Source: a virus (taxonomy: Duplodnaviria; Caudoviricetes). Taken from it: a DNA stretch of 64,000 bases. This document shows positions 25,013 through 49,220 of the stretch, in pieces. The notes below the pieces were generated by a model. The model was not told the DNA's origin and ran no database searches. It worked only from the letters and a program-made list of their open reading frames with translations. The translations under genes and the position numbers were made by a program. The DNA lies in the IMG/VR virus record IMGVR_UViG_3300025267_000006, positions 32,001 to 96,000 of that record; one strand, written 5' to 3'. Numbering within the stretch: the first letter of the stretch is position 1; every line of letters begins with the position of its first letter.

Positions 25013-26620
25013 TTACTTCTTTCCAACAAGTTTAATTAAATCTTCCACCTCGGCGGCAACTGGATAATCTTCAGACAATAAAAACATGGATTCATCTATC
25101 TCATTCAACACCTTGGATTCGATGCTGGGAGTTGGGTCGCCGCTCTTCTCCAAAAGAACCCCATCTTTACGCTCTGGACGGGGTACTTCATCTAATTTTT
25201 GAATTTCTGTCTCATCTTCTTCCCCAGTCTCATCTGGAAGGGAGGATTTAACTGAACGAATAAAAGTTTCTAATTTCTTAGCATCTTCGCTGAGGTCTCC
25301 AGCCCCCTTAGAATCAGCTTTCATTAATTCAAAGAATCTATTCAAATCTCCCCTTAACTCCAAAACCAATTTCTTTATTTCATCTACATCTGGATCCTGC
25401 TTCATTTCATCAAGAAACTTATGATTGGCTATTAGATTGGAAACCCTAGAAATAGTATTTTTATTGAATCCAAGCCTAGCAAGAGTCTTTTCTGTTAACT
25501 TTGATCCAGGATCGGCATGCCCGGGGAAGTTACCATTAACCTTCTCAATTGCACCCTTGCCAACATCGTGGAACAATAAAGCTAGGTTTAATATCAAATC
25601 AGTAGATTTAGCTGCTTTGAGGGAACGTAGAGTGTGGTCCCATACATCTTTACGCCTACCCTTTTGCTTCAGCCCCCTCAACTTATTCAAATCAGAGCAT
25701 ATATATTGAATAATATCGTAGGTGGATAAAAATCTAAGCCCTATCCAAGGCTTCTCGGTCTTGAGTATCTTTTTTAACTCCCACCCAATTCTGTCTGGTT
25801 TTAAATTACCCACTAATTCTGATGCATCCGGCATAGCCGCAAGTAAGGAACCGTGGGGCTTAACAGGAAAATCAGATAGGAACCTAGCTGCCCTAAGAAT
25901 TCGAGAGGAATCTTCAGTAAAGGATTCTAAGCTACGATCTGCGGGAGTGCGAAGTACCTTAGCTTTAATGTCATCCAAACCGTGGTAAGGATCATAAAAT
26001 TGACCAGTTACAGATTGAGCAATGGCATTGATTGTAAAATCTCTTTGCCTGAGATTGTCCAACAAACCATCTGCAGTAGTAGAGATCATATCTACTTTTA
26101 AATCACCGACGTGGAATTTCAAACGAGCAAATGCATTCGAATGCTCGGAATACTTGATACCCAAATTATCGAAAATCTGTTTTACATTGGCAAGGGGAGT
26201 AAGAGATATAATGTCTACATCTTTAGATACTTTTTTAAAATACTTATCTCGAATATAGCCACCAACAAAATAAATAGGAAGGTAGTTACCTAAAGTACGG
26301 ATCCAGTCAGTAGCTACCTTACGTTGGTTTAATCTTTGTGCTACCTCCGGGTTGACCCAGGCAGTTCGTGCCCTCTCAAAAGTCCTGCCACCTCGATGCA
26401 CTAGCTCATATATTTTAGTCTGAACTTTTCCAGACTCTCCTGGGTGCGTTAACCGCTGAGTCTCTGCGGGTGCTCTTTCCTCAACCCTAAAAGATTCAGC
26501 ACGAGGATCCTCACCCGCCTCTACTCGCTCTATAGAACGAACAGGATCAGCCTCTTGCTTAGCAAGCCAATAATCCAGTTTTAACAACATCTCCTGCTCA
26601 GGGAGAAATTTGTTAGACAT
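25013..26620 (-). CDS. cca: class II tRNA nucleotidyltransferase (CCA family) with HD domain and ~100-aa N-terminal extension
   Basis: VGGYIRD, DVD, RDFTINA, EDSSRILRAARF, HDVGK. Confidence 0.9.
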   Translation of the reverse strand: MSNKFLPEQEMLLKLDYWLAKQEADPVRSIERVEAGEDPRAESFRVEERAPAETQRLTHPGESGKVQTKIYELVHRGGRTFERARTAWVNPEVAQRLNQRKVATDWIRTLGNYLPIYFVGGYIRDKYFKKVSKDVDIISLTPLANVKQIFDNLGIKYSEHSNAFARLKFHVGDLKVDMISTTADGLLDNLRQRDFTINAIAQSVTGQFYDPYHGLDDIKAKVLRTPADRSLESFTEDSSRILRAARFLSDFPVKPHGSLLAAMPDASELVGNLKPDRIGWELKKILKTEKPWIGLRFLSTYDIIQYICSDLNKLRGLKQKGRRKDVWDHTLRSLKAAKSTDLILNLALLFHDVGKGAIEKVNGNFPGHADPGSKLTEKTLARLGFNKNTISRVSNLIANHKFLDEMKQDPDVDEIKKLVLELRGDLNRFFELMKADSKGAGDLSEDAKKLETFIRSVKSSLPDETGEEDETEIQKLDEVPRPERKDGVLLEKSGDPTPSIESKVLNEIDESMFLLSEDYPVAAEVEDLIKLVGKK

Positions 26621-26624
26621 GAGA

Positions 26625-26792
26625 CTATTTTTTAAGAGAACGACTTTTAGCTATACGAACCATATCTTCAAGTTGAGTAACGACGTTGTCGTACTCATTG
26701 CTGGTCCGTTTTTGCTTCTTAAGATACTCAATCTCTAGAACACCCGTTAGGGTATCTAATATAGATCCAATCGTATCCAGACGCTTAGACAT
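26625..26792 (-). CDS. 55-aa microprotein MSKRLDTIGSILDTLTGVLEIEYLKKQKRTSNEYDNVVTQLEDMVRIAKSRSLKK (not in ORF track)
   Basis: translated by hand; abuts the upstream stop, GGGGGG/AAGG RBS-like sequence; carries the EYLxKQ helix. Confidence 0.65.
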   Translation of the reverse strand: MSKRLDTIGSILDTLTGVLEIEYLKKQKRTSNEYDNVVTQLEDMVRIAKSRSLKK

Positions 26793-27600
26793 TTATTTCC
26801 CCCCCTTACCTTTGTATTTCTTACTTTCTCCGCCCTTAATAGTGGAGAGTTTGTCCAACTCACGTATCAATTCATCGGCATCCTGATCGGTAGCCCTCTT
26901 GGCAACGAATCCCAAATCATTGAAGGTCTCTAGAACATCTTGTTTGTCTTCAGGATCGATAGGAGCAACAATAATATTGCCATGCGCTGTCTCTGTAGCA
27001 ACCTTCTTACCAAAATCTCTTACATTGTCATAGATTACGGGCCAGTACTCTGAAGATCCCTGATCCGTCTCAATCTGCAATACGAAACCGTATCCCTCTT
27101 CCTCGTCGTCTTTGTCCCCATACACATGAAACCCCGCTACCAGGGTGTTCACAGCATCGAACATGTACCAGAGTTCCGGGTGCTCAGATTTTTTGGGTCT
27201 ACTCTTGGTCGCCATCGGATTGCTCCCTAGCGGTGAAATAATTTTCCGGTAGCTTCAAACTTCTATATTCTGCACGTTCTCTTGGCGTTAACGTTGCAGT
27301 TAATCCCGCTTCTTTGATTATCTTTCTAGCTTCTCTAGGATCCTCTACTAAAAAGAACTTTGTAGACATACTCGTATATTCAAGATATATACGATCAAAC
27401 ATCTCAGCTTCACTGTAACCCGCAAGTTGGTATTCTTTTACGGCCCCCTCTAATGATACACGATCAGTCCCAAAAGGAGCTTCATCGTCATCTTTTGTTA
27501 AAACTTTTCCACTGGGAAGAATAGCTGCAGCAATACGAACCTCTTCTTCAGACTCTGGATGACCATAACTGATCCAAGTCTTCTCTATTAACACTGCCAT
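26793..27600 (-). CDS. two small acidic hypothetical proteins (26793-27215, 27199-27600)
   Basis: GAGGTGG and GGGAG RBS; own promoter upstream. Confidence 0.65.
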
Positions 27601-27637
27601 ATCAAACCACCTCGTATACTAAAGTTTCTCACTGTTC

Positions 27638-27670
27638 AGTATACTCTATTTAAGCACATCTGTCAAGCTC
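27638..27670 (-). promoter_or_regulatory. promoter GAGC-TTGACA-N17-TATACT
   Basis: reverse-strand consensus match. Confidence 0.8.
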
Positions 27671-30600
27671 ATTCATATCTCTGTTTGATTAGTTTATACT
27701 CTGGCCTAGAATCCTTTGAGGACTGAATTTGAGGAGTTGTATATAGCCCTGAGGGAGGTGTCCTCTGAGATTGTCCTTGTCGAAGACCTGTTTGTCCCGG
27801 AGGTCTACCTCCAGAAATGGGTCTACCGCCTTCAAGTTCCTCTGTCTGTCCAGCCAGTCTTCTACGTTCCCCTGGTGATAGGGCTGCTCCCGGCATCAGA
27901 TTAATTAAATCCCCCACAGATACATTGCTAGGTAAATCTCCAGCATCGATTCGAGCTTGTGCTGCCCTTTCAGGATTACTTGCGGAACCAATAGATAATG
28001 CCGCATCTACAATAGCTTCCTGATCGCCTGTATCCCAATTCTTACTGTATGCCTCTTCGGGACTTATTGGTGTACCACCACCTGCCGTTTCATATTTCCT
28101 AGCATCGGGTGCTCTCTGTTGATCCAATTCAGAACTAGGCTGCAACAAACCCTGAGAACCGACCCCCACTTCCTCCCTGAGAGCCTCTTCTTCCGATTCA
28201 GGTATGTTGTAGGAGGATCCTCGTTGAGATGGAGATTCCGGGCGTAGGGGTGAACCTGTCTCATCGGGTGAAGCACCAATTCCAAGTCGTTCTGGACTAT
28301 CATCTAATATGGCTTGCCAACCAGCAGCAGCATCAACATTTTTAAGAGCGATTTCATTTATAGCTACTTGTAGATTTTCTCTTTTTTTCTCATCGTTGAT
28401 TCCCAATCTAAGAGCCTGATTAATCAAGTTCTGATTTGAAGGAGACATAGCCTCATCAATCATAGACTGTGGAGCACCTTGCCCAGCTAAGAACGCAGAT
28501 ACCCCACCCATAAATGCTTGCTGTGGATCTGGAGCAGACGGCGCAGACGGCGCAGACGGCGCAGAAACTGGAGTTCCTGGTTCTGGAGCCGATGCGTCTT
28601 CAACTCGTTCAGGCGACGGTGACTTATCTTTTACTTTCGCATTCTGACCTGGATCGAACCAACTAGGTACAAGTCTACCTCTAACTGTTTTTTCTGTAAA
28701 ATTACCCAGATCATAGGACGCTAAAGCAAATTCACGCATACGTTTCTTAATTACTTCTGTAGTAACTTTCGTACCATCCATAAGTTCGCCAACAACATGC
28801 ATATTACAAGCTTCGGCTACATCTAGAATTTTATTCATATCAAAATGATCATCAAACCAAGCATCAAAGTGACCTATGAATTTCTTTTCCGACATTCCAG
28901 TAGGAAGTCCAGCCGCAAGTCTAGGAACATTGGCTGTCGTTGCACCAAATAGTGGATTGGGATCATGATCTCTCCAAAATTCCCACTTAACTAGCCCCTT
29001 ACCCCTTTGATTATCGGCCTTAATCTCTGCAAATCTACCATTTGCACCATTGTCAAAAGCCACTATTTTTTTGGTGTCTCTGCCTATTCCAAAGTTGAGG
29101 TTATGGCGATCCGATTGACCCAATATAAGATCCATAGCTATCATTCCAAATCCGCTATGGAGACCTTGAATATCCCTTGAATGGCCCGCACTCCCTGCCT
29201 TCCCATACCCAGAATGCCATTCTTGTAAGAACCCGCCACCTCGCTCACCCATCTCTACCCATTCTGCTATGTCTTCATCCTTTAGACCAGCATCTCTCAT
29301 CCACTCCACACCAAGATTAGTTACTTCTATATATGGCATTACTCCTAGACCTAAAGCTTTGTCTAGGGCAAAAGAAGCTCGTTCTGCATACTGTTCACCC
29401 GGTATAATTTTATACATATAGTCCTTGCCCTTAATTTTTACATGCATGCCATGGGCAAAGCCAGATGAGACTTTTTTCCCAGCATCCGCTGCCTCCTCCC
29501 TAGCTAAAATACCACCAGCGTAACTACCTGCAAAATCCTGAAACTCTATGTCGCTAGGATCTATATTAGATAGGTCCTGCTCACCATACATGAACTGGTC
29601 TTCTCTCTTGATACCCATCCCTTCCAACAATGCAGCCGATTTTTCCATCATGGCTTTATTATTCTCAACAGGATTGAATTCATCTCCGTTGATTGCTGTA
29701 ATTATCTGGTCTATAGGCTTCCCTAAGTTCGGATCTACGGGACCTGTCCTGGCTGCTTGAGCACGAATACGTGCTTCCCTCTCTGCAGCTTCTTTAGCGG
29801 CCTGTTGCTGCGCTCCACCCATCCCAGCTAGTGCAGGTTGGAAGGGTACTATGGGTGGTCTTATAATTACATCTTCGTGCGCCTCAGGATCTCCACCTAA
29901 GTCAGCAGCGGCCTCTTCAGACCCCACTTCACCGGGTACACCGCCAGCATGAGGTTGTCTACCCCAACGCCCCTCTACCTTCTCAGCTTCCCGTTGCTGG
30001 CCCTTAGCGGCACGTTCTCGTGCCCACTTACCCGGATCCCTCAATGGATCCATATGGGAAGCTCTTCCCTCTCTACGAGCTTTTACTCCAGCATCTATTG
30101 CATCTGAATCTAACCGCATATTGCGGATTCGTACTTTTCTCTCACCCGGAAGTTCTGTCTGGAACTGCCCCTCATTTTCAAGGAAATTACGGGCATTTGA
30201 GAAATGATGGTCAACAAGAGCAGTCGGAATAGCTATCGGAATAGCTCCCGCTTCTTCTGCCTCTCCAGCCATTAAAATCTTCTGGGGAATCCAAATGTCT
30301 TCACCCTCTCTTACCTCGTCAGGGTGAACATCAATAAAATCTCTAACGAAGACATCTATAGGTGCTCTGTTGCCTTGTCTATCGAGCAATCGCATTGGAG
30401 CTTTCTTTTCTTTGCCCCGTTTAGGATCAAAGAAAGGAGGAACTCCATCTACCCATAACTCAGGTACATCATCAAACTTCTCATCGTGCTTACCCATTTC
30501 CTCTCGGAACTCAACCGCCTTCACGTCAAGTTCCTGCTCCCAATCCACCGCACCTACCTTCAAACGTTCAGCCCTCTCCAAATACTGATCCATGGACTGA

Positions 30601-31022
30601 ACCTTAACCCCAGCAAATTTAATATAATAAGGAAGCTTTCCTTCGTGAATGAGAGAAATCATCTCGTTATACCTATTACGTATGAGATGAGCTTCCCTAC
30701 GATAATCAGCAACCTGAACTAGAGCTTCAGCCCTTTCCTCTTTAGACATAGAAGCTATCTGCTCACGGGTCAACATCGCCATCGGATACATTCGAGCGGG
30801 ATTAACCCACCTAATAGCCCTAAAAACTAACCTTCTGGGGATGCGTCTATGCACTGTCCTGTACATAGGTCGCAAATGAGGATAAAGAGCATGCTGCTTT
30901 ATAAGCAGAGTATGGGCAAAATCAGCAAGCTGAATGAGATTGGTATCCCAAGCCAAACTCTCCTCCCTCGCTTTGAGAAAAGAGCTTACTGTCGCTGCTA
31001 TCTTATCTTTAGTTAGAACCAT
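27669..31022 (-). CDS. large putative virion protein with a central HipA/PI3-PI4-kinase-like domain
   Basis: YMYK, ERASFALDKALGL..MP, D.ILGQSDRHNLN, IVAFDNG. Confidence 0.7.
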   Translation of the reverse strand: MVLTKDKIAATVSSFLKAREESLAWDTNLIQLADFAHTLLIKQHALYPHLRPMYRTVHRRIPRRLVFRAIRWVNPARMYPMAMLTREQIASMSKEERAEALVQVADYRREAHLIRNRYNEMISLIHEGKLPYYIKFAGVKVQSMDQYLERAERLKVGAVDWEQELDVKAVEFREEMGKHDEKFDDVPELWVDGVPPFFDPKRGKEKKAPMRLLDRQGNRAPIDVFVRDFIDVHPDEVREGEDIWIPQKILMAGEAEEAGAIPIAIPTALVDHHFSNARNFLENEGQFQTELPGERKVRIRNMRLDSDAIDAGVKARREGRASHMDPLRDPGKWARERAAKGQQREAEKVEGRWGRQPHAGGVPGEVGSEEAAADLGGDPEAHEDVIIRPPIVPFQPALAGMGGAQQQAAKEAAEREARIRAQAARTGPVDPNLGKPIDQIITAINGDEFNPVENNKAMMEKSAALLEGMGIKREDQFMYGEQDLSNIDPSDIEFQDFAGSYAGGILAREEAADAGKKVSSGFAHGMHVKIKGKDYMYKIIPGEQYAERASFALDKALGLGVMPYIEVTNLGVEWMRDAGLKDEDIAEWVEMGERGGGFLQEWHSGYGKAGSAGHSRDIQGLHSGFGMIAMDLILGQSDRHNLNFGIGRDTKKIVAFDNGANGRFAEIKADNQRGKGLVKWEFWRDHDPNPLFGATTANVPRLAAGLPTGMSEKKFIGHFDAWFDDHFDMNKILDVAEACNMHVVGELMDGTKVTTEVIKKRMREFALASYDLGNFTEKTVRGRLVPSWFDPGQNAKVKDKSPSPERVEDASAPEPGTPVSAPSAPSAPSAPDPQQAFMGGVSAFLAGQGAPQSMIDEAMSPSNQNLINQALRLGINDEKKRENLQVAINEIALKNVDAAAGWQAILDDSPERLGIGASPDETGSPLRPESPSQRGSSYNIPESEEEALREEVGVGSQGLLQPSSELDQQRAPDARKYETAGGGTPISPEEAYSKNWDTGDQEAIVDAALSIGSASNPERAAQARIDAGDLPSNVSVGDLINLMPGAALSPGERRRLAGQTEELEGGRPISGGRPPGQTGLRQGQSQRTPPSGLYTTPQIQSSKDSRPEYKLIKQRYE

Positions 31023-31057
31023 AATGTCCCCACTGGTATCAAGTATATTAGAAAAAA

Positions 31058-34162: not shown

Positions 34163-35998
34163 TTACTCTTCTTCCGCCTCTTCCTCTTCATCTGACCACT
34201 TTTCAGTAGCAGACTCATCAAGAAGACCACCTTCCAAAGGACCCGGAGGTGGTGGAGGGGGAGGACCAAGTGGAGGGGCCGCTCCTCCAGCTTCCATACC
34301 AGGCATGGGCGGTGCTCCAGCCATAGCCGCCATTGGATCTCCACCTGGCGGAGCCGCCGCCTTCTTATATGTAAATCGTATGTCCTTGCCAGTATCCTTC
34401 TGAGGCTCAAATCCAAGTTGCTGCATCTGAGTAGCAATCTCTATGCGCTGCTTCTCCATAGCAAGGTTAATATCTTCAGTCTCTTCTCTTGGAGGTGCCA
34501 ATCCTATAGTCCAATCGTCAACACCTAATTGTTTTAACAAGTTAGGCATTATCGTATCGTTGAATATACTCTGATACGACTCAATCAAAGCATCATGCAT
34601 AGAAGTTTGAGCCGATTCTTTTGCTAAACCTCCACCAGCACTCTGAGCATCTCCAGTGAATAGAGGTGTTACCCCCCACAGCATAGCTATACGCTCTCGT
34701 ATTTCCTGACGAACTGGAAGATAGTCCAATTCCTGGAACGTATACGCCAACTTAACAAAGTCAGTCTTACCACGGTTATTCCGTGCTGAAGCCGCAACCC
34801 ATGGGAATGTGTTGGGATCGTTCAACATTTGAGTTTTGATTCTCTCTATTTCAACTTCGAGAGAATCTGGATCATCCGTATACGTAATTATCAATCCCGG
34901 TGGGATACGCCTTTCATACCAATACCTATATAGAGTCCTGTCGGCCCCAACCAGAGACAAAACTTTTTCAAATACTGTTAATACTGGGGAATATCCATAA
35001 GTTTTAGAGGGGCTGAAGAATGAAGCATGTAATATCTCATCCTTGGTGTAATACCTATACCTGCCTCTCCAATAGTATCTATACATAGCTGGCAACAATA
35101 TGCCATTGCAGAGGAATCCCTCATCGTTAATAGCTACGCATTGACCGGGACTGGTATGTGTTTGCTGCTCACGGTGTATTGGACAGATAAAATGAGATCT
35201 TTCAGGAAGCCCATCTTTTCTATCTATGTCATATTCAGTCAGAGCAGGATGCAATCGAGTAATCTCAAATATTCTCTGACTCTCTACCTCCCCAGTCGCC
35301 CTATCTAGAATGTATTCCTTGTTAAGAAGTAAGAATCCGTCATCCGCTATCAAGACATCCTGTATAAATTCTATGAACACCGACTGCATTGTTTGATGGA
35401 AACTATTTGCATCTGTTTTCAGATCATCAAAAATCTTCTGCTGTGCCATATCGGGCACTCTCATTGGAGCCGTAACTCTCTTACCGTTCTCATCTCTCTT
35501 ATATTTTTTATAATTCTTAGTGGTATAACTACCAGTTTTTTCGTCTATAACAACTTGCTCTTGTATTTCATACAAGAAGCACTTATCACAATTTTCTTGG
35601 TCTTCGTCGGTAGATTCATTGCCACATTGAACACATTTACGTGCAAATTTCTGTACCCAGTTACTAAATCCCCGCCTAAACACTTCTCTTTGAATACTAA
35701 GTACAACAGAACGTATCTCAGTAACCTGGAAAGCAAGAACGAACAGGTCCTGAAGAATAGATCTGCGATAAATAAACTGTTGGCGTACCCAATCTTGGAT
35801 TATTGCGTCTAATCCAAGAGGAGACATACGCCCAGAAGACGCTGATCCTTGAGCGGCCTCTGCAGACTTAGTTAGCGCATCTAGTGTGCCTAACACGCCC
35901 TGCATTTTGTTGTAATTCTCGACCCCAGGAACGGGTTCAGAACCGTTTCTGCCGTTCTGGTTAGAGAATATATTTGCCAGATTGTCTATTATGCCCAT
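34163..35998 (-). CDS. portal protein
   Basis: follows terL; D.L..DDGF, EILH, YGYSP, PPGLI, IA..WGVTP pattern; Pro/Gly-rich acidic tail. Confidence 0.85.
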   Translation of the reverse strand: MGIIDNLANIFSNQNGRNGSEPVPGVENYNKMQGVLGTLDALTKSAEAAQGSASSGRMSPLGLDAIIQDWVRQQFIYRRSILQDLFVLAFQVTEIRSVVLSIQREVFRRGFSNWVQKFARKCVQCGNESTDEDQENCDKCFLYEIQEQVVIDEKTGSYTTKNYKKYKRDENGKRVTAPMRVPDMAQQKIFDDLKTDANSFHQTMQSVFIEFIQDVLIADDGFLLLNKEYILDRATGEVESQRIFEITRLHPALTEYDIDRKDGLPERSHFICPIHREQQTHTSPGQCVAINDEGFLCNGILLPAMYRYYWRGRYRYYTKDEILHASFFSPSKTYGYSPVLTVFEKVLSLVGADRTLYRYWYERRIPPGLIITYTDDPDSLEVEIERIKTQMLNDPNTFPWVAASARNNRGKTDFVKLAYTFQELDYLPVRQEIRERIAMLWGVTPLFTGDAQSAGGGLAKESAQTSMHDALIESYQSIFNDTIMPNLLKQLGVDDWTIGLAPPREETEDINLAMEKQRIEIATQMQQLGFEPQKDTGKDIRFTYKKAAAPPGGDPMAAMAGAPPMPGMEAGGAAPPLGPPPPPPPGPLEGGLLDESATEKWSDEEEEAEEE

Positions 35999-37998
35999 TA
36001 ACCACTATACCCGGCTAATTGCTGCATCAAAAATTCGTCCGATTCCCGCACCGTAACCCATTTTGACTTTGAATTGGAAGAATGCTTCATACGCTTCTTT
36101 TTAACTCCACATATTATACATGCCATGTATACGGCTTGAGTAGCCTCAAAGCATCTAGATCCAAACCCATCTTCAAACTCTATGCCCCCCACACGTTGGC
36201 AGCTATCACATATATCCTTGCTACTACTGACTATACGAGAAGCTATCTCATCCCTCTTGAATCCATTTTGGGGATTATTTAGATTCTCCAACACAGGATT
36301 CTTTTTGGCGTTTGAAGCAGGATCCGCATCTACTACAGTATGAGGGGAACTAAACAAGGTGTTTAAGTTACCCACGCTGCCCATACGTGTGAGTACTCCC
36401 TTCTCCTTCAGTACCCCGTGTACTGCACCTGCCACAGCATCAGCCCTATCTTTCTTCATTCCGGGTCTGGCATCAACCCGCTCACCATACACTATATCCA
36501 GACCTAGAAGCTCTTCTATTGCCTCTGGATGAAAATATGCGTCCAGTTTCTCCTGATAAATTAGATCTTTTAGGGTATCGTAAGCTTCTTTTGTTCTAGT
36601 TACAGACTTATATTTGGCTGGAACCCCCCTATTTTGAAGAGTTTGAAGCGAATTTATAGATTGATACTTATCATAGGTGACACTTGCAAGCTTAATTCCA
36701 TTATCACGTAGATTTAAAAGAAAATTCTCTATGCTTCTAAAATCTACATCTTTATCTGGTTGCGGTTCCCATGTCTTAATTAAATCAAGAAATACCGAAT
36801 CTTCATTTTTATCTTTATGGGCTATAGCTAATGCAGCATTAGAATGTCTTAGTCCAAGATCCACATGGACATAATAATAAACACCTTCTTTTAGATCAGT
36901 CTCATCTCTGATATTTTTCATACCAGAATGAAATAGATCTCCCTTCTCGTCTATATCTGCATCAAAACATCTAAGGACCGGTATGGGATCACGTATGAAA
37001 GCATCACGAGCATAAGGGGGATCACATTCGAATCTAGCTTTGGCTAGAATAGGATCAGTATCATAAAAATCTTTGAAATCCTCTTTTTTCTTAGATGGAT
37101 TGAAATCCCAGGTGGAGAAAGCACTCCCATCGGGGTTACATGCAACATAAGTACGTTCTTCTAATTTGCCCGCCTCAAATCGTCGTTGAATAAAAGATCC
37201 CTTAAAACGGGGCCATGAGAGGGATACAACCCTTCCAACCCCAGGGAAACGTGACTGTATAAGTGATTTAGCGGTTTTATATATTCCTTCAGCACCCTCA
37301 CTTCTTAAACCACTACTCTTACGTAACTCCTGTTCAGATTTGAAAGCATCTATCTCGTCTAGGAGGATCAGTATGGGTGTATATCCCTGCCAAGATTCAT
37401 TTTCAGAGTTACCGCTTATAAGACGTATATTTTTTGGGAAATTGATTAACGTCTGAGTCGCACTGTAAGAAATACGATTTGGATTATCAGCACCGAATAA
37501 TGGAGAATTTTTAAGCACATTAATCAATGTTTGAAAGTAAATATTTCTAGCTAAGTCTGCATTAGGAGCAACATTTATAGCATCAATGAAGCTATTACGC
37601 TCCATATTGAAATATTTTTGAGGGCTTTTAAGACAATTTAAAAGATAAACAATTCTCAATCCCACAAAAATAGAGCAGGTGTCTTTTCCAGACCCCTGCC
37701 CCGCCATGAGGACTCCCTCTGTGACAGGAGTCTCTGAGAAAATATTGGAAAGAGTATCAACGAATTTAAGTTGTGGAGGAGATAATCTAATAGAGAGATT
37801 TAAATTATCTTCACCATATAAAAATTCTTTTATGTCTACTGGGGATCTCTCCCAAACACCAAAAGTATCCTCAGTTACGTCTTCATTAGGATCTTTAGAC
37901 GTTAACTCGGATATATAATCAGCTAGGAACTGCCCGCTGGTTGTAAAGTTTACCGAGGGCGACGAGCTTTTCCCCGATCCGTTGGAGGGTGATAACAT
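35998..37998 (-). CDS. terL: terminase large subunit
   Basis: Walker A GQGSGKD, Walker B ILLDE, RNase-H-like HVDLG, YDKYQS, D.ADAVAG. Confidence 0.9.
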   Translation of the reverse strand: MLSPSNGSGKSSSPSVNFTTSGQFLADYISELTSKDPNEDVTEDTFGVWERSPVDIKEFLYGEDNLNLSIRLSPPQLKFVDTLSNIFSETPVTEGVLMAGQGSGKDTCSIFVGLRIVYLLNCLKSPQKYFNMERNSFIDAINVAPNADLARNIYFQTLINVLKNSPLFGADNPNRISYSATQTLINFPKNIRLISGNSENESWQGYTPILILLDEIDAFKSEQELRKSSGLRSEGAEGIYKTAKSLIQSRFPGVGRVVSLSWPRFKGSFIQRRFEAGKLEERTYVACNPDGSAFSTWDFNPSKKKEDFKDFYDTDPILAKARFECDPPYARDAFIRDPIPVLRCFDADIDEKGDLFHSGMKNIRDETDLKEGVYYYVHVDLGLRHSNAALAIAHKDKNEDSVFLDLIKTWEPQPDKDVDFRSIENFLLNLRDNGIKLASVTYDKYQSINSLQTLQNRGVPAKYKSVTRTKEAYDTLKDLIYQEKLDAYFHPEAIEELLGLDIVYGERVDARPGMKKDRADAVAGAVHGVLKEKGVLTRMGSVGNLNTLFSSPHTVVDADPASNAKKNPVLENLNNPQNGFKRDEIASRIVSSSKDICDSCQRVGGIEFEDGFGSRCFEATQAVYMACIICGVKKKRMKHSSNSKSKWVTVRESDEFLMQQLAGYSG

Positions 37999-39789: not shown

Positions 39790-39805
39790 TTAATATCTCC
39801 ACAGT

Positions 39806-39834
39806 AGTATACCAAAATTAAGGAAAAAAAGCAA
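39806..39834 (-). promoter_or_regulatory. promoter TTGCTT-N17-TATACT (extended TGG -10)
   Basis: intergenic, immediately after the 1367-aa gene stop. Confidence 0.6.
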
Positions 39835-39836
39835 AT

Positions 39837-42800
39837 TTATTTCTTTTTCTTCTTCCTAGCTGCAGTCCGTTTCGGTTTTTTATAGGTAACTTCACCACCA
39901 GTTGTAAGACTCCACCCCTTCTTCTTCAATTCTTTTAGCTTCTCAGCAATAGCATTAAACTTCTTAGGGGAAATAGAAGTTATATTCTTCTCAAGCTCTT
40001 CTGTTTCTAATTCATTGTACTGATCCCACTCATCGAACAGGTCAGGGTCTATATAATTACCCAAACAAGTTCCGGGATCATTACCTAAAATATCAGATGG
40101 ATCCTCAGCCAATTCCATCTTAGCTCTATCCTGCCTACGCTGAATCCATAATCTAGTTATGTTCTGAATATTCGCAGCAGTGAGGGGAGATTCACCTGCG
40201 TCTTTCAAAGTAATGGTATCAGCAATGACTTGTTTAACTATGACTGCTTCTACAGACTCCATAAATTCTTGTGGTTTGAGAGACGAGACAGTTCTATCCC
40301 CTATACTATAAGTAGTAGGGATATCAGCCTCTCCTATTAACTTAGCAGCCGCCTCATTAGCATGAAGTGTACGGAAATTCCTGGCAGTTAGCCTTACATT
40401 CGGAAGAGCATCAACCGTAACCCCTCTAATATAAGGATTTACATCCCCCAGAGGAGGGGTGCCAGTACCTCCCCATGCTCCAGCAGAGAATATGTAATCC
40501 TCATCTCCCAACTTCTTATCCCCACTCATTTCCGTAAGTTTCTTAGCCAGCACAGGATCTGTAACTGGGGCATGGTTAACTTTACCCGATTTACCCACGA
40601 AAGAAAGCATCACAGAGCCATCTGATTGTGGAACTATATGCCGTTTCTGTAGAGTCGATATGCCAAAAGTTTTAACAGAGAATTGAGATACTGCAGCATC
40701 CTTCCCTTCTCCACGTATCTTAGAGGCCAAAAGATCACTCTTTACAATAGAAACATCTGGCTTTACTTTCCTAACAGCAGCCAAACCTTTAGCCGTAGAA
40801 ACCTTTCCCCCACCCGTCATCAATTTATCGCCATCTGGAACACTTATATCAGACTTAGAACCTACACTACCGGGACGACGAGCCGTATGAAAAATCAGAG
40901 CAGCTACCATAGCTGATCTCTGTATGGTATTCAGCCCCATAGCCCTATGCTTTGAAAAATCCTCGTTGGAAGTATCTTCTAGTGTAAATCTCTGGGGGCT
41001 GGATATATCTGAAGCTGCTCTCTGAGCAAGTTTATCTATGATCCCAGACTTAATTAATTTATTTACCTTGGCAAACTTGGATCTACTACTACTAGCAGAC
41101 CATGACCAACTATACTTAGTAACTGGTTTTCCTTTAGGACTTACAAGAGTTGCCTGTACCTTACCGTTCATATTTGTATTGATTAGAACATCAGTATTAG
41201 TACCTATATTAACCCAATGCCCATCCCCTGTAGTAACACCAACAAGACTCTTCTCAACCTCACCAGTTTCTTCATTCTCTACTTCTTTATAGACAGCTAC
41301 ATTAGGTTGAAGGGGAGTATCATTTGGATCATTAGCTCCTAAACCAGATACATAAGCTTGTCTGGTCTGTGCCGTAATCTGTGCACCAGAGATTTCCTCC
41401 AAACCCTTCGCATATTCTTCTATAGGCACCATCTGAAGTCCGCTAGGAAGCTCAGGATCAGGATCGACGGGTTTTCTAGCTCCCCTAGGAGCACCAGCCC
41501 CGGTAACCATTCCAGGCCCTATAGGGGCACCATCGGCAGTAATCTCATATCCAATAACATCATATTTACCGCCATGAGGGCCAACATGTTTTCCCCTATC
41601 ATGCCGATACTTTTGAGTTTCAGGAAGCTTCCAAGTCCAATCCTCAAATCGTGCCCATTCGGATTCTTCCTGTTTAGCCAGATACTCTACAGCAGTGAGA
41701 AGAGTCATAAGTTCAGGGAAATCGTCTGACTTCTGAACCTTACTCGACCCTTCTAAGACTTGAGCCAGTTTAGGATTTATAGACTTACCGCTCGGACTAG
41801 ACTTCGCTGATAGATACAGCGTTCTCATCCACTTACGGAACGGAGATTTCCAGTCTTCTCCATTTAATTTCTCAGTACCAGTACCAAAACGTACTGCTTT
41901 TTGGATATCTTCATGTCCCTTATGAAGTTCTTCCTCCAATGCCTCAGTGAACGCCTCTTCATTCTCAGCCTTCCAATGACCATTTGCGACACCAGATTCC
42001 TCCGCAGCAGCTTGCCGCTGTCTTGGAGAGAGATCCCTTCTATAGATATTACCCACACCACGAATCATGTCTTTAACTTTATCTACAGACAAGAACTGTT
42101 GAAAAGTATTGGAATCCTCTTGCAATACGGTTAGTGCTGTAAGATCTTCATTACTCATTGATTCTAAAGCTGCAGGAGTTTCTGAAATCTTAAATGTCTC
42201 ATAATCAGTAGTCTGACCGTTATAGCATCCAAGACCAGCCTTGTCCCCACCCATATCGCAGTTAGCACAGGTCCAATTATCCAAAGTGGGCTTAACTTCA
42301 AACTTTTCTGCTGTCTTTTTTCTGCCATCATCGATGGGACACATGTTCACACCGAGATGCTTTCTATTGTCGCTAGGCTGAATAGCCCGAACCTGTTTTA
42401 TATCTTCAGCCGTAGCCCCATTGTCCTTCTTCTTTAGATCCCTAACAGGAAGAACTACCTGAATACGATCTTTGTATTTCTCAGCAAACGAAAGATTCCT
42501 ATCGAGTTCGGCTTGCCTCTCTTCTGGTGTTCGAACCTTGCCCGTCCTTCTATCTTTTATCGGACCTTTACCAGTGAATACAAATGCTATTGGAAGATCA
42601 TTGCCTTCAGCTATTTCTGGATTATCCTGATCAACACTCAACAACCTGATATTTTCTTTAGCCACCATATTTAAAAATGCTGGACGCTTAGAAAATACAT
42701 GGACTCTGATGCCCGTACCCTTTGGTGTCTCCGCTCTATTTACGTGATAGATTACTTTGGCCCAAGCCTCAGACCCTTCTCCCCTATCAAAGAACCTTAA

Positions 42801-43940
42801 GGCACGATTATTATCAAAAAGAACTTTTCCTTTGCCGTATACAAAATCTTTAGCAACTTGTGCTGCAAATCTCTTAGGGTCATTATTCACAGCCCACTCT
42901 AGAAACTCCGATTTCATAATAATATTGGGCCATCGCCCCCTAGCGTTATAAGCGTAACAAAAATCCTTACAATCACCAGAAGGATTACAATTCAAAGGAC
43001 TTGCCGCTACGGCCCCCACAGGTTTAGCTGGACTACCCATGGCTTGAGATTTTTCAATATAATCCCATATGGCTTCACCGCCATCACTTTTAATAGCTTC
43101 ACCAAGCTCGTGTCTGGCAACAGAACTTTCACTTTCTCTTTCATCAATGGCAAAAAATGGATGATCCTCACCATTCAATAGGGCTGCTATTCCCTGCCTA
43201 CATTCAGCAGATCTCTTAACAGCTAACCCCCAGGGACTCTTCCTCCACTCATCCCTGTCTTCTTCCTCAACTCCCATCTCCTCTAGCACATCATCTAAAG
43301 TTTTTCCTAACGCTTCAGCCTGTTCCTCTAAGCTATCGGCAGACCATACGTCTAATCTATCTTCTATCGCTCCAAGACCTACATTCTGTCCATCCACAAA
43401 TCCTTCATGATCTATCTCGTCTAACCACGAACCAGCTATTTCTTCAACTCTATTTTCAGGAGTGTTTCCTAATAGTCCAAGTCCTTTAACAAAAGCAGCT
43501 ACACTTTTGATTTGATCTTCATTCAAATCGGGACGAACTGCACGTAACTTCTCTAGATGAGCGGCCTCAGCAGGATTAGCTTCAGTAGGAGCTTGAGGTT
43601 GAGGTTGAGGCACACCAGCAGGAGCTAAGGGATTTCCCTCTTGATCCACTTCCGTTCCTATTATTGAAAAACGTCCCTCTCTTGGCCCCTTATGTTGGCC
43701 CTCAGGATGGTAGTGACGCTTCTCTGGGGGAACAAACCCCGTAACCCACTCCTCAGAGATTTCACCCTGCTTAAATAAATATTCAGCAGCGGCAAGAAGA
43801 GTCATAAGTTCAGGAAGGTCGTTAGATTTCTTCAACTTCTTATTCTTCTTTTTATATTTATCTGCTTTATTGGAATCTCGAACAGATTTAATCCAATTAG
43901 CACTTTCATACGATCTATCTACATTTATTCGTATTACCAT
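39837..43940 (-). CDS. 1367-aa modular protein: leader + GP88-like Cys domain + leader + DNA topoisomerase IB
   Basis: NCNPSGDCKDFCYA...RFFDRG...FSKR; topo IB RPG, FVGKSG, NFRT, LGN, NYIDP. Confidence 0.85.
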   Translation of the reverse strand: MVIRINVDRSYESANWIKSVRDSNKADKYKKKNKKLKKSNDLPELMTLLAAAEYLFKQGEISEEWVTGFVPPEKRHYHPEGQHKGPREGRFSIIGTEVDQEGNPLAPAGVPQPQPQAPTEANPAEAAHLEKLRAVRPDLNEDQIKSVAAFVKGLGLLGNTPENRVEEIAGSWLDEIDHEGFVDGQNVGLGAIEDRLDVWSADSLEEQAEALGKTLDDVLEEMGVEEEDRDEWRKSPWGLAVKRSAECRQGIAALLNGEDHPFFAIDERESESSVARHELGEAIKSDGGEAIWDYIEKSQAMGSPAKPVGAVAASPLNCNPSGDCKDFCYAYNARGRWPNIIMKSEFLEWAVNNDPKRFAAQVAKDFVYGKGKVLFDNNRALRFFDRGEGSEAWAKVIYHVNRAETPKGTGIRVHVFSKRPAFLNMVAKENIRLLSVDQDNPEIAEGNDLPIAFVFTGKGPIKDRRTGKVRTPEERQAELDRNLSFAEKYKDRIQVVLPVRDLKKKDNGATAEDIKQVRAIQPSDNRKHLGVNMCPIDDGRKKTAEKFEVKPTLDNWTCANCDMGGDKAGLGCYNGQTTDYETFKISETPAALESMSNEDLTALTVLQEDSNTFQQFLSVDKVKDMIRGVGNIYRRDLSPRQRQAAAEESGVANGHWKAENEEAFTEALEEELHKGHEDIQKAVRFGTGTEKLNGEDWKSPFRKWMRTLYLSAKSSPSGKSINPKLAQVLEGSSKVQKSDDFPELMTLLTAVEYLAKQEESEWARFEDWTWKLPETQKYRHDRGKHVGPHGGKYDVIGYEITADGAPIGPGMVTGAGAPRGARKPVDPDPELPSGLQMVPIEEYAKGLEEISGAQITAQTRQAYVSGLGANDPNDTPLQPNVAVYKEVENEETGEVEKSLVGVTTGDGHWVNIGTNTDVLINTNMNGKVQATLVSPKGKPVTKYSWSWSASSSRSKFAKVNKLIKSGIIDKLAQRAASDISSPQRFTLEDTSNEDFSKHRAMGLNTIQRSAMVAALIFHTARRPGSVGSKSDISVPDGDKLMTGGGKVSTAKGLAAVRKVKPDVSIVKSDLLASKIRGEGKDAAVSQFSVKTFGISTLQKRHIVPQSDGSVMLSFVGKSGKVNHAPVTDPVLAKKLTEMSGDKKLGDEDYIFSAGAWGGTGTPPLGDVNPYIRGVTVDALPNVRLTARNFRTLHANEAAAKLIGEADIPTTYSIGDRTVSSLKPQEFMESVEAVIVKQVIADTITLKDAGESPLTAANIQNITRLWIQRRQDRAKMELAEDPSDILGNDPGTCLGNYIDPDLFDEWDQYNELETEELEKNITSISPKKFNAIAEKLKELKKKGWSLTTGGEVTYKKPKRTAARKKKKK

Positions 43941-46900
43941 AATAATTCCCTACGCTGGTCGAGGTTCCCCAACTGTACCCTTCACGGGTTTCTCATCCTC
44001 ATCGCTACTTGGAGCCGCAGCTAGTAATTCTGCTATACGTTCTGGGGAAGGAGTTCCCACTACGGATTGTTTTAAACTCTCTGCCAACTGTTTATCTCCT
44101 TGCTTCCTTCTCTCCACTAACTGATGCTCTGTAAGTTTGGGTGCTTTAGTAGGAAAGGTAGAACTTTCCTCTGTATCAGCATAAGGATCAATAGACAATT
44201 TATCATCTGATGACAACTCTGCCCAGAGCCTAGGATGAACACTTCCCGACTCAGGTTCCCATCTTCTAGCTAAGCTCATAGCGGTCAATATTGATTCACG
44301 TTTCGAAGGATTCATTCTATGAATACCCTCAGCGTCAAAGTGTCCATATTGATGATCAATCTTATCAACGTCACTCATAGTCTCCTGATTATATTCCTCT
44401 ATCATCTGAGCTACAGAATCTCTATAATCCCATACCTGTGTCTTCCTATTAGGAGAATTAATTCCAAGAACCTCATTCTCATTACCAAGAAAGGCATAAG
44501 ATCCAAAATGAGTGAAAATATCATCTTTAGATATCTCAGATTTAAGAACTACAATTTCATCCGCCTTATCGCCAACCCATCTGTCAAAAGTCGATGATGG
44601 CTCAGCCTTCGGATTCATCTCATCTTGATACTTCTCATAAGAGGTAGACTCAAGCAACCAATCATTATCAGAAGCCTTGGCTGAAAATTTAAAAGCTACA
44701 TAAGGTTTAATTGTCCAACTCGTAAGGGGATTGGATTGAAGCTCCACTTCCTCACCCAAATAAGATTTTTCTCTCACTTCGTCTTTTAATCTAGCTCTCC
44801 GATATAATTTATCCCTCCCCTTCTCACCCACCGCTGTTATCTCACCATATTTACCCTCACGGGTAAATTTTCTAGATGGATCCGCTATCTCTCCTACAGT
44901 AGTACCCCTGTAAACAGTCAAAGTGTCCGTATCAGGAAAAGCCAAGTCCAGCATCCACCTACTCAAAGCTTTATGAACTCTTACATACTCATCAATATCC
45001 TCTTGAGTAGGTTTTGCCCCAAGTTCCTCTTCCTCCCACTTAGATTCCAACAGTTGTTCAGCATTATCTTTCGCCAGAGACAGACCTCTATCATCTTTGG
45101 CTCCCTGAAAAAATTGAACATCCCCATCAAACTGACGACCCACAGATTCCTGAATAGCCCAGGAGAAATAACCGCCAGTAGAATCAGCTTCCCAATCATC
45201 CTTAGCCAACCTATGAATGGTTGAGAATTTAGTATTTGAATATAACTCATCCACCACACGAACCAATCTTGAGGTTGGGTCTGAACTCTCTAAATTCTGT
45301 AACCCACTTAAAACTTGACCATCAAATGTAGAATTTGGGAATGCTTTCCTGAATCCATCTTTACCCCCCTCTGGCATGGAAAGATTCTCAGAAAAATAAT
45401 TTATTAAATCATTCCCCAGATAACTAGCAGCTTTATATCTCAGGAAAGCTTGCTGAGCTATCGTAGGATTTGAATGCTCCATAAGAGGTAAAGCTTCTTG
45501 GCTGTTATATCCATTAACCCACTTATTCCTACGAGTAAAAGAAGGAAAAAGCCTTTCTTCATATAACTTTTCCAAAAAGAAATCCCTTTGTTCCTCCCTT
45601 CCCTTATCCCCAAACAGATCTTGTGCAGTTCTAAGTACGGTTCCTATTTCCCCTTCATGCAAAACAGGTTCAGGTTTCGTCCATTTACCTCTTCTTGCCG
45701 CAGTTGGATCTAATTTTATATCCCTTTCAATCATCTGCTTGTCAACGGTATCCCAATCCACCTCGTACTGGCCCGGAGTATATGAAGTTGGGATTTCTAT
45801 AGGAGTTTGTCTAACCTGAGTCGGTACAGCCTCACCTAAATCATTCCCGTCCTGATCCACTTCAGTCCCGATAATATCAAAACGACCTTTCCTTGGTCCT
45901 TTATGTCTACCTGTAGGACTATATTTACGTTTCTCTGGTGGGACATACCCTGTTGTCCACCCCTCAGACCCTTCTCCCTGCTTAGCCAAATACTCTGTGG
46001 CAGCGAGAAGTGTCATAAGTTCTGGAAGATCGTTAGATTTCTTAATTTCCTTCTTTATAGATAAGTCTGCATGTATCGCTACTTCACGAGTTCCAAGAAA
46101 ATCCCCTGCCGTATCAACACGAACCAAAGCATTATCTGGAACTGATTCCCTCGATACCTCACTTATACCCACTGTATCTGGAGTTGCATCACGGAAATTA
46201 ACTAGAGGATCACCCACAAATAAAGGGTTTTGTACTAGAGGAAACCACTGTTTAGTATCCTCCTCGGTCATTTCAACTGCTATATCGAAGTAGTCATCGA
46301 GGAAATCCGCAATGTCCGCTCTATTCCTCTGATACAAAGTTACGAAATGCCTAGTCTCTCTTCCTGCAGGAGGATCACTTTCGATATCTATTAGAGGCTC
46401 CAATGCTTGCTCATACAAAGCGGTATGAATGTCGTCAGAATCAATCTCTTCATCTATTTCCGCTAAACCCTTATCTGCCGCCGCTTGTAATCTACTATGA
46501 ATGTATTGAGCATCCTCATCAACATACTTATTCAATAACTCTTTTATCTTCACCCAATCACTATCTGTATAGTCCGTAAGCTCAGTAGGCACACCTAAAC
46601 GTGCTATCTCACCCGCACGGAGCATTTCTTTTTGCATAAATTTGGCATGTTCTGGGTCAGTAGTAAAATAGGCTGCATTGTTTAGTTCTTTTGTTTGTGG
46701 GCCACCTAGCCCATGTACCTGCTCCTCATCCCCCCTTAATGCCAAAATCGTCCCAGATGATTGTATTTTTTGGTGATGGGGAGAAACATGATACAAAACA
46801 TCGGGTAATTCAGCCTTAGCGATCTTCCTACCGTTCCCAGGGGATAAAGAATAGTCATTTGTTACGTGAACTTTAGGTTCAACAGAAGGAGCTTCTTCAG

Positions 46901-49220
46901 CCTGTTGAGGCTTAGGCTCAAAACTCTCCCCCTCAAACACCCAATCTTTACCGTACTCTAGCTGAGTACGTTTTGTGACTAATACGTTTGCCTCTCCAGC
47001 CTCTCCAACTTCGGGAGGTATGTTATATTGCTGATCAGGTAAATACGCATCTCCCTCCTCAGTACGTATTTTTATGGTCTGTGCGTCAGCAGCATCTAAT
47101 CCATAATCATCTTGTAACTGCTGTCTCCAAAAATCTGGATCACCTACATGTATGCCTCTAAGCCCGGATGGCCCATCTGCATATCCCACACTGTCTAAAT
47201 CATATACTTCTAAAGTATCTCCAGCCTTTGACCCCCATATAACACGAGCAACTTCCTCTCCCTCATCAGCCATACTCCAATCATACTCAATATTATCTTC
47301 AATCCACTCTCGTTCTTCTGCTTCTGAAGAAATAACAGCATCTTCCGGCTGTGGAAGGATGTTACCCTGCTGAGGGGGCATCGGAAGTTCGCTTATATCA
47401 TGAGGGCCAGGAGGTTGTGCCTGTGAAAGTTGACCTAAGGAATCACCATGTTCATTTACTTCTGTACCTATGATAGAAAATCTGCCGCCTCTAGGACCCG
47501 TATGGGTGCCTTCCATATGGTAGAAACGTTTTTCAGGTGGAACAAATCCTGAAGTCCACTCTTGGGACGGAGTTATTCCCTGTTTAGATAAATGCTCTGT
47601 AGCAAATTGATACTTATTTCTAACGTAATCCAAAGCTTCATCAGCAGAAGCTATCTCTCCCTCTTCCTGCTGCCCTTGAACATCACGAAGGATGTCTCCA
47701 AGCTCACGCCCTTCTTTAAAGCCAAGACCCTTCAGATCATTGCCTGTTAGAAGGGGAGCTATCTTCCCCTCTTTTAATCCACCAGCCTCAGAAACCTGCT
47801 TAATTCGATCCCGGAACCAAACATTCTCCTCATTTCCATGCTCAGTCATCGAACCATCAGGATTTTTAACTAATCTTCCACTTGCATCGGCCTCAGACAC
47901 AGCAGAAAGAAGATTTAGGTACTCAGTCCCATGCTTATTGATTAATCGCCTGAAAGCGGCATCTGAAGCCCCGTCTCGATGATATTGAAGAGGCTTGAGG
48001 TGATTCTCAACTAGAGAGGGAACTGTGGCTAAGATGTCCCTGTCATTAGTTAACTTGCCCAGGAATTCCTCTGTTATGGGAACACCCGCTGCCTCATGAC
48101 CGATAGCCCTACCATCTGAGGTAGTGGTCTCAGGCTTACCCAGGTCATGACATAACGCAGCCAGCATGATAATGGTTTTATCTTTTTCATCTGGAAAACG
48201 TTGGATAATCTCTGCTGCTTTATCCAGAGTCATCTTAGTGTGAATAAATACATCACCTTCAGCGTGGTAATCACTACGTTGGTGAGTATCCTTCAGTGCA
48301 GAGATTTCTGAGAACTGGGTATCCAGCACTCCCATATCATCCAGTGCCTGTATACCTGTAGATGGGGTAGGGGACTTCAATAATAACTTTTCGAATTCCC
48401 CAAAAACCCGCTCATTAGATATCTCAGACAAATCCATCGAACGAGCCAGTTCCTGGGTAGATGGATCTATAGAAAAATCAAACCGAGAAGCAAACTGTGC
48501 AGCCCTGTAAACACGGAGTGGATCCTCAACAAAGGTTTCCGGGCTTACATGTTTGATACGTTTCGCTTCTAAATCCTGTATGCCCCCAAAAAAATCCAAC
48601 ACTTTGTCATTTTTATAATCGTACATCAACGCATTGATCGTAAAATCTCTACGTCTAGCCGCTAATTCTGGAGATAAATTAGGGTTAGGCTCCACATCAA
48701 AATCGGTATGCTTATCTCCAACCTTAGTCTCAGTCCTAGGTAGGGAGATATCAAAATCCCCAACTTTGAATACACCGTAGATCTTGCCTACCTGATTCTG
48801 CTTGCCCCCCAAATCCTTTTGGACAATGTCTGATAGCTCATCGATGGTCAAACCATAAACTTCAATATCTACGTCTTTACTTGGTACTCCGAGTAATGCA
48901 TCTCTAACGCCCCCACCGACCACATAGGGATCGCCGTACTGAGATAGGGTGTTTAGAACATGCTGAGCTTCGGAATCCCTCTCTATCCAGGCCCGTACAC
49001 TTTCATTCTCCATGCCCGGAGCCAGAGTGGGAACGGGCTGACCAAGTGGATTTCCATGAGGATCTGTCTCTACCCCAATAATAGAAAAACGACCACCCCT
49101 GGGTCCTGTATGTTTCCCTTCAGGGTGGTAGTAGCGTTTTTCTGGGGGGACGTGAGAAGTTATCCCCTGCTTATATAGATACTCTGTAGAGGCAAGAAGG
49201 GTCAGAATCTCAGATAGTCT
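41518..49220 (-). repeat. five dispersed in-frame copies of a ~60-70-codon leader module (approx. 49035-49220, 47431-47603, 45832-46044, 43626-43832, 41518-41735)
   Basis: protein alignment by eye: (SNDLPELMTLLA)xEYLxKQ...VPPEKR..H.GP.xGRF.IIG.E.D..G..LG; copy 2 lacks the first helix, copy 5 is the most diverged. Confidence 0.95.

Follow-up and report, generated by a model that had tools for sequence, protein, structure and literature searches.

Two predicted class II tRNA nucleotidyltransferase–HD enzymes, one of them without the flexible loop, in a tailed-phage genome record

The DNA analysed here (the window) is a 64,000-nucleotide stretch of the marine phage record IMGVR_UViG_3300025267_000006 (Duplodnaviria; Caudoviricetes), referred to below as G000 (105,383 bp), and corresponds to G000:C1:32001-96000. 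It encodes two proteins, P0001 and P0002, that a sequence-only reading had named as tRNA nucleotidyltransferases, one of them lacking the flexible loop. Both genes were present and the sequences quoted in that reading were found in P0001 and P0002. They accounted for all PolyA_pol matches in the whole 105,383-bp record and shared 29 % identity across 371 columns. Features of the two genes are listed below, with lengths in amino acids (aa) and with the source of the assignment, where structural models were made with AlphaFold2 (AF2), profiles were hidden Markov models (HMMs) and model confidence is the predicted local distance difference test (pLDDT).

25013-26620, minus strand: P0001, class II tRNA nucleotidyltransferase lacking the loop, 535 aa, with an HD domain and an N-terminal extension particular to its family
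26552-26602, minus strand: P0001 residues 7-23, N-terminal helix with an L-x-K-Q motif (alignment and AF2 model)
26348-26431, minus strand: P0001 residues 64-91, β-hairpin (alignment A1; DSSP strands 66-76 and 79-89 in the model)
26042-26092, minus strand: P0001 residues 177-193, third-carboxylate strand leading directly into the motif B helix; loop and basic/acidic motif missing here
25901-25915, minus strand: P0001 motif D (EDSSR), nucleotide template; D and R kept in the family, first position relaxed
25397-25645, minus strand: P0001 HD domain; H..HD intact in P0001, lost in one family subclade
43950-49256, minus strand: P0002, three-module polyprotein, 1768 aa
49029-49226, minus strand: P0002 residues 11-76, leader copy 1 (leader HMM, 109 bits)
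47961-48926, minus strand: P0002 residues 111-432, loop-bearing CCA-type head, neck and HD domain (Pfam; NF008137; AF2 pLDDT 85.8)
48642-48752, minus strand: P0002 residues 169-205, third-carboxylate strand, PRTE basic/acidic motif, conserved loop and RRRD motif B (alignment A2)
47424-47642, minus strand: P0002 residues 539-611, leader copy 2, at the border of the CCA/HD module and module 2 (leader HMM)
45822-46040, minus strand: P0002 residues 1073-1145, leader copy 3, at the border of modules 2 and 3 (leader HMM)

The PolyA_pol head domain was matched at 54.2 bits by P0001 and at 75.9 bits by the N-terminal 552 residues of P0002 (Pfam cut-off 23), and the PolyA_pol_RNAbd and HD domains also scored above their cut-offs in both. 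P0001 additionally matched phrog_2244 (tRNA nucleotidyltransferase) with an E value of 3.4e-48. All of the class II motifs, namely A (GGxVRD..DxD), B (RQRD in P0001), C, D (EDxxR) and E, were found in the two proteins. The template motif and the HD domain previously read in both were borne out, the former as EDSSR in P0001 and EDPLR in P0002 and the latter as an intact H..HD in each.

The flexible loop was indeed absent from P0001, as was a PRTE-type basic/acidic motif; P0002 possessed both. The motif A DxD and the motif B RD were separated by 56 residues in P0001 versus 72 in P0002, and in a joint alignment the distance from the third-carboxylate strand to RD was 15 versus 33 residues. A word-index search defined a P0001 family of 63 clusters (P0003-P0065) at 41-99 % identity, after which identity fell to ~30 %. 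The DxD-RD spacing was exactly 56 in 58 of the 63 family clusters and the loop was absent in all 58 that could be scored; the other five (P0060 and P0062-P0065), at least some of which are short fragments, were left unscored by the spacing pattern. Recurrence of this exact spacing across 58 of 63 clusters indicates that the deletion is neither chance nor an assembly artefact. Of 57 more distant word-index matches, 18 were scored by the spacing pattern, at 62-81 residues. When a profile search was run across 1.84 billion proteins and the spacing was read in the top 150 representatives, the distribution was bimodal, with 25 motif pairs at 46-60, 100 at 64-98 and none at 61-63 residues. Family members inside polyproteins (P0184, P0205, P0208 and P0210-P0212) also lacked the loop; the loop-less module lies within polyproteins such as P0184 (2026 aa) and P0205 (1729 aa), and is elsewhere fused to topoisomerase IB or DUF192.

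One member of the loop-bearing polyprotein clade, P0149, had a partly deleted loop, with a DxD-RD spacing of 59 residues and PRTE retained, which suggests that loop loss can recur within phage lineages.

The sources of the P0001 family were marine viral and metagenomic contigs. No close DNA relative was found by blastn among cultured phages, and in a collection of 50,697 cultured-phage records tblastn gave 446 records matching P0001, all at <60 % identity and those listed at 24-29 %. A scan of viral contigs with P0001 alone returned no relatives, whereas an alignment-based scan did recover them; a metagenome scan with alignment A1, the patterns of which were too general, gave four family loci on contigs of at most 20 kb. 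What is new is a large family of viral class II enzymes without the loop.

The AF2 model of P0001 was built from a 28-sequence alignment (mean pLDDT 73), and in it strand 174-180 runs directly into helix 183-191. Across the 28 aligned family members, down to 40 % identity, the invariant positions were GG..RD, both Asp residues of DxD, D177, R193-D194, R277, G279 and E281, with the template residues D237 and R240 kept in at least 90 %. Further towards the N terminus, K21 of the L-x-K-Q helix was invariant in 28 of 28, and the β-hairpin at residues 64-91, which canonical enzymes lack, belonged to the best-conserved stretches in the family (F81, E82, R83 and R85-P91 invariant). As far as can be judged from sequence, P0001 is apparently an active enzyme under selection, and the invariance of its catalytic residues across the 28 members makes this probable. 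That it is instead a catalytically dead structural or cargo protein is scarcely credible: its gene does lie in a portal-proximal block among large proteins of unassigned function, and the HD motif is lost in a subclade, but little or no variation was seen in the metal-binding carboxylates and in motifs A-E down to 40 % identity.

In P0002 the corresponding elements were conserved among 26 aligned relatives (alignment A2), with P173 and R174 invariant and E176, G180, H183 and F186 kept in at least 90 %; the complete HD set (H339, H370, D371, H387, H419 and D457) was likewise invariant or nearly so. The best-scoring NCBIfam model for P0002 was NF008137 (multifunctional CCA addition/repair), at 190.9 bits compared with 101 bits for P0001, both below the equivalog cut-off of 451. 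The A-adding model NF041569 (A-tRNAntase) scored 59.4 bits in P0002 and 30.1 bits in P0001 against a cut-off of 1440. There was thus no positive sign of the A-only activity that had been proposed for the polyprotein copy, its best family being the full CCA/repair type, and module 1 of P0002 is predicted to be a full-motif CCA addition/repair-type enzyme with an intact predicted HD phosphoesterase. Modules 2 and 3 had no Pfam match at E ≤0.05, and Atlas gave unnamed viral clusters only. The true start of P0002 is likely to be the ATG at 49238, since its database twin P0123 is 1762 aa long. The called TTG start is overlapped by a 63-aa glutaredoxin-like open reading frame (ORF; 49235-49426, minus strand), and P0123 begins six codons later.

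Enzymes limited to CC or to A addition occur in bacteria and a few eukaryotes. The original papers are said to be those of Neuenfeldt (2008) and Tretbar (2011), and the HD activities were reportedly treated by Yakunin (2004). In the portions of the literature drawn on here, a deleted flexible loop is described as the hallmark of bacterial CC-adding enzymes, which cooperate with a separate A-adding enzyme (PMC7014341). The loop is presented as a lever by which the template changes over from CTP to ATP, and addition of A76 is blocked when the loop is deleted and by most point mutations in it, whilst the basic/acidic motif places the CC end; A-addition was regained on grafting a related loop, and only closely related loops worked (PMC7014341, PMC3925840). 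In the E. coli enzyme, loop deletion lowered the kcat for A-addition 1200-fold (PMC2532741, from the part of the text available). A literature search found no work linking CC-adding enzymes to phages, the papers that name both being unrelated as judged by title and abstract.

Measured against this rule, the CC-adding activity that had been read into the short enzyme is upheld in that the loop and the basic/acidic motif are both deleted, the other core motifs are kept and the deletion is fixed in the family. It falls short in that loop loss alone is no proof of CC-only activity on tRNA, because E. coli poly(A) polymerase is described, in the available text of PMC2532741, as functioning without an equivalent loop. 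The CC-adding-type assignment is reasonable, and P0001 has about an even chance of being a CC-restricted tRNA-end enzyme.

Structure comparison was in keeping with this assignment. Both models matched CC-, CCA- and A-adding structures over the head-neck-body-tail fold with a Foldseek probability of 1.00. The best Protein Data Bank matches of the P0001 model were 3WFO-3WFS (E 1.7e-18 to 2.7e-17; template modelling score 0.62-0.70 on target), with A-adding, CCA-adding and poly(A) polymerase structures at 3.3e-13 or weaker, about five orders worse. We take the whole 3WFO-3WFS series to be the Aquifex aeolicus CC-adding enzyme of Yamashita et al. (2014), which fits the release date. As a control, the AF2 model of P0002(1-552) (pLDDT 85.8) did not discriminate, giving 8.7e-16 for 3WFR versus 2.1e-15 for the Thermotoga CCA-adding enzyme. 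In the part of PMC4810234 drawn on here, 3WFR is tabulated as a CC-adding enzyme. The preference of P0001 for 3WFO-3WFS is real but modest as evidence.

Several findings weigh against a CC-restricted P0001, besides the tolerance of E. coli poly(A) polymerase for loss of the loop. The preference for 3WFO-3WFS may be due in part to shared length and to the shared missing loop. The first EDxxR position was non-acidic in 7 of 19 loop-less family rows versus 5 of 153 other rows and, whilst the template D and R were kept in 18 of the 19, P0043 possessed neither; nucleotide choice in the loop-less family may therefore differ from that of textbook enzymes. The H..HD residues were lost in a subclade comprising P0044, P0045, P0048, P0049, P0052, P0055, P0058 and P0061.

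Some of these points would suit a P0001 that is an RNA-tailing enzyme of the poly(A) or poly(C) type, or whose substrate is some other nucleic acid of the phage or the host: the poly(A) polymerase of E. coli is active without the loop (PMC2532741, in part), the first template position is relaxed in the family, and the strongly conserved additional N-terminal hairpin has no assigned role. Such an activity is nevertheless unlikely, as the PcnB models scored far under their cut-offs (TIGR01942, 50.4 bits for P0001 and 103.7 for P0002 against 305.65; NF008634, 35.9 and 62.6 bits against 702), the P0001 model aligned over ~390-410 columns with the chains of tRNA-bound CC-adding enzymes, and the template D and R persisted in all but one of the rows.

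A careful IQ-TREE reconstruction was based on 79 catalytic regions, with motifs A and B verified in each and the loop columns kept, comprising 19 rows of the loop-less phage family, 13 polyprotein-type rows, 15 other loop-less rows and 32 rows taken at random from 80 other loop-bearing ones. The loop-less phage family, including its polyprotein-embedded copies, formed one side of a 100/100 branch, apart from the P0002 clade, and 12 of the 13 polyprotein-type rows formed a separate 100/100 clade; the base of the 79-row tree was unresolved. The family did not form a joint clade with all other loop-less rows, which were scattered (six changes, at least three of them forced), and a single clade of all loop-less rows was rejected by the approximately unbiased (AU) test (p-AU 0.0024, superseding a p of 0.106 from a quick IQ-TREE run that was 60.6 log-likelihood units worse than the careful tree). 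The phage loop deletion consequently need not stem from a bacterial CC-adding lineage, and the loop-less phage family may still descend from one particular cellular group. Constraining the two phage families to a common clade gave a better likelihood than the quick tree and cost ~14 log-likelihood units relative to the careful tree (likelihoods subtracted), so that the two may or may not be sister groups.

The two enzymes had been interpreted as a split CC-adding plus A-adding pair, and their distribution was therefore compared across related records. G001, a 141,341-bp genome with terminal repeats that was rated 100 % complete, was syntenic with G000 over the replication genes, terminase (59 % identity), portal (63 %), two large proteins and the loop-less enzyme (56 %). 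It carried the loop-less gene only, in the same place, with no second PolyA_pol gene detected by Pfam search or by a search with whole P0002. At the polyprotein position, between reductase and topoisomerase-like genes, it had a 517-aa ORF with a weakly leader-like N terminus and no nucleotidyltransferase match. Each of the 21 other viral records with a P0002-type module had one PolyA_pol gene; of these, only G018 (190 kb, 94 % complete) was informative, the others being 16-83 % complete. Obligate pairing was not supported, the loop-less gene standing alone in complete G001 and the polyprotein type in 94 %-complete G018. By this distribution, the loop-less gene is a conserved part of the portal-proximal block, the polyprotein is a variable accessory, and the two enzymes are probably not an obligatory two-part kit.

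An obligate kit, in which P0001 adds CC and the polyprotein enzyme A only, would account for the presence of a loop-less and a loop-bearing enzyme in one genome and would parallel the bacterial CC-adding enzymes that act with a separate A-adding enzyme (PMC7014341, in part). A second, unconfirmed co-occurrence may be that of P0052, a loop-less family member, with P0130, of the polyprotein type, since the longest contig given for each is 40,637 nt. Such a kit is distinctly unlikely given the single gene of G001, the single copies in 21 of 21 polyprotein-type records (G018 included, most of the others being fragments), and an A-adding model score of 59.4 bits against 1440 with the full CCA/repair type as best family. 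Moreover, A-only specificity is described in the available text of PMC7014341 as a structural constraint in the C-terminal part that admits only tRNA ending in CC and has no sequence motif, so that it is unreadable from sequence.

The single gene of G001 would also fit a P0001 that builds complete CCA, with the N-terminal extension or another element replacing the loop lever, and few parts of the protein are as conserved as its N-terminal hairpin. This is very unlikely in view of the large fall in A-addition on loop deletion and the restoration by closely related loops only (PMC2532741, PMC7014341, both in part); P0001 also lacks the basic/acidic motif, by which the CC end is positioned, and the host can supply A76.

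The setting of the two genes was as follows. The minus-strand order begins with replication genes encoding a DnaB-like helicase, primase, family A polymerase, RecA/UvsX-like recombinase, Cas4-like nuclease, RuvC and ribonucleotide reductase. These are followed by P0002, a 1367-aa protein, the small and large terminase subunits and the portal, and then by two large proteins (1034 and 1117 aa), three small ORFs and P0001. The terminase and portal genes lie downstream of P0002, beyond the gene for the 1367-aa protein and three short ORFs.

34163-35998, minus strand: portal (PHROGs), between the P0001 and P0002 genes
35998-37998, minus strand: large terminase (PHROGs), between the P0001 and P0002 genes
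39837-43940, minus strand: 1367-aa protein, two leader-tagged modules

Some neighbouring genes deserve mention in their own right. Two DNA methyltransferase genes (phrog_116) are found in the plus-strand early region (5602-6657 and 8874-10022, plus strand). The large post-portal protein at 27669-31022 (minus strand) had a weak PI3/PI4-kinase-like match in G000 (E 0.27), and its 912-aa counterpart in G001 (L116:7615-10353) matched the PI3/PI4-kinase-like Pfam family at 31.1 bits against a cut-off of 27.1; it may be a kinase-like cargo protein. Module 2 of the 1367-aa protein, scanned alone, matched the catalytic core of eukaryotic-type topoisomerase I at 23.7 bits, equal to the cut-off, and the 683-aa counterpart in G001 matched this core at 70.2 bits.

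The sole tRNA gene of G000, tRNA-Tyr(GTA), is located at G000:C1:25886-25973, outside the window, and that of G001 is tRNA-Leu(TAA). As both phage tRNA genes encode their own CCA, repair fits better than maturation as the task of the enzymes. No RNA ligase or polynucleotide kinase-phosphatase, as would belong to a wider repair kit, was detected in the 78 G000 ORFs scanned with PHROGs, with ~70 shorter ORFs unscanned and the record incomplete. A defence that cuts tRNA CCA tails is known in Cas12a3; according to its authors (PMC12851939, abstract and Discussion), phage tRNAs offer no way around it and no viral counter-measures are known.

P0002-type modules head, or lie within, about 39 clusters (P0123-P0161) of proteins of 981-2528 aa at 36-100 % identity. 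Phage_Mu_F was found in four of nine scanned polyproteins of this class, and the other partners were ART-PolyVal, 2H/Acb1-like, ADP-ribosyltransferase, SprT-like, GNAT, methyltransferase, metallopeptidase and ATP-dependent ligase domains. P0161 joins the CCA/HD module to an ATP-dependent ligase domain, whereas P0154 and P0156 join it to Phage_Mu_F and a 2H/Acb1-like phosphoesterase. MuF-linked polyvalent proteins have been proposed to be head components that are injected with the DNA (Iyer et al., 2017; PMC5512222, in part). By analogy, the fusion of relatives to Phage_Mu_F head domains makes virion delivery plausible for the polyprotein class.

The modules of P0002 and of the 1367-aa protein start with a leader of ~70 residues, a helix ending in Y-L-x-K-Q followed by ..PPEKR..GPRGGRF.IIG.., which is present in five copies, always at a module start. 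The five copies scored 109-136 bits with the leader HMM, three in P0002 and two in the 1367-aa protein (residues 38-109 and 737-809; 41500-43830, minus strand). The L-x-K-Q leader attributed to both enzymes was confirmed as a motif, at P0001 residues 18-21 and at all three P0002 module heads; homology of the leaders was not demonstrated. The HMM of the five polyprotein copies missed P0001 at E ≤10, with two family members alone appearing, at E >7. BLASTP of the P0001 N terminus and hairpin against the N terminus of the 1117-aa protein gave an E value of 0.13. A tag shared by P0001 and the polyproteins is consequently not claimed, given this BLASTP value, the HMM miss and the low confidence of the leader model (given below); the common part is the L-x-K-Q helix only.

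The interpretation that we propose, with about an even probability, is that the phage carries two independently inherited class II tRNA nucleotidyltransferase–HD enzymes that do not form a mutually dependent split pair. By the published loop rule, P0001 would add C74-C75 and would add A76 poorly or not at all. The polyprotein CCA/HD enzyme would probably be loaded into the capsid and injected, as its class recurs in polyvalent proteins, some of them MuF-linked. Both enzymes would most likely mend tRNA 3' ends damaged in infection, with A76 coming from the polyprotein enzyme if the phage has one and from the host enzyme if not. The domains and motifs, the loop deletion with its fixation, the occurrence in relatives and the fusion architectures are observed; we infer the nucleotide specificity, tRNA as the substrate, packaging and the counter-defence role. 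To be set against this proposal, in addition to the points raised above on P0001, are the completeness of G000 (just 69 %), the absence of a MuF match from P0002 itself in Pfam scans and the AF2 model of the P0002 leader, which had a pLDDT of <50. In a bolder version, which is decidedly improbable, viral CC-adding enzymes would be represented for the first time by the loop-less family, whose helix plus hairpin would be a capsid tag bringing them into the cell; with the injected CCA/HD module they would make up a virion-borne counter-defence that rebuilds tails cut by, for example, Cas12a3.

A loop deletion fixed in at least 58 protein clusters from viral and metagenomic contigs lets the 'loop as lever' model be tested independently on natural variants, and it is one candidate explanation for how phages could withstand defences directed at the universal CCA tail.

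Among known systems, the bacterial CC-adding enzymes (e.g. AaS of Aquifex aeolicus) resemble P0001 in keeping the class II core motifs with the flexible loop deleted, and the cellular loop-less proteins P0222, P0223 and P0231 share with P0001 a spacing of 15 residues between the third carboxylate and RD. The cellular loop-less enzymes, however, keep the basic/acidic R (..TxFRG..) where P0001 has ..ISTT... Unlike the bacterial CC-adding enzymes, P0001 was not nested in any cellular loop-less group, possesses an extra N-terminal helix and hairpin, is encoded by a portal-proximal viral gene and belongs to a family in which the first EDxxR position is relaxed. Module 1 of P0002 shares all core motifs, the basic/acidic motif, the loop and the full HD domain with the CCA addition/repair protein of the E. 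coli type, from which it differs in heading a 1768-aa polyprotein behind a repeated leader and in scoring below the 451-bit cut-off of NF008137. Class II CCA-adding enzymes are also encoded by jumbo phages, where they have been listed as RNA-repair genes and proposed to restore CCA or parts of it; loop-less and loop-bearing types are not separated in the part of that work drawn on here (PMC7824862). P0002 resembles the polyvalent proteins of Iyer et al. (2017) in combining several unrelated modules in one chain near packaging genes, and its relatives pair the CCA/HD module with Phage_Mu_F, ART-PolyVal, 2H/Acb1-like, SprT-like, GNAT, ligase and topoisomerase IB domains, as in polyvalent proteins; unlike some of these, P0002 itself has no MuF or peptidase match. 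In that founding survey the module is not described, 'CCA' occurring 0 times in the main text (PMC5512222). The present findings show that MuF-linked polyvalent proteins commonly use the CCA/HD module as a building block, a point on which the survey is silent.

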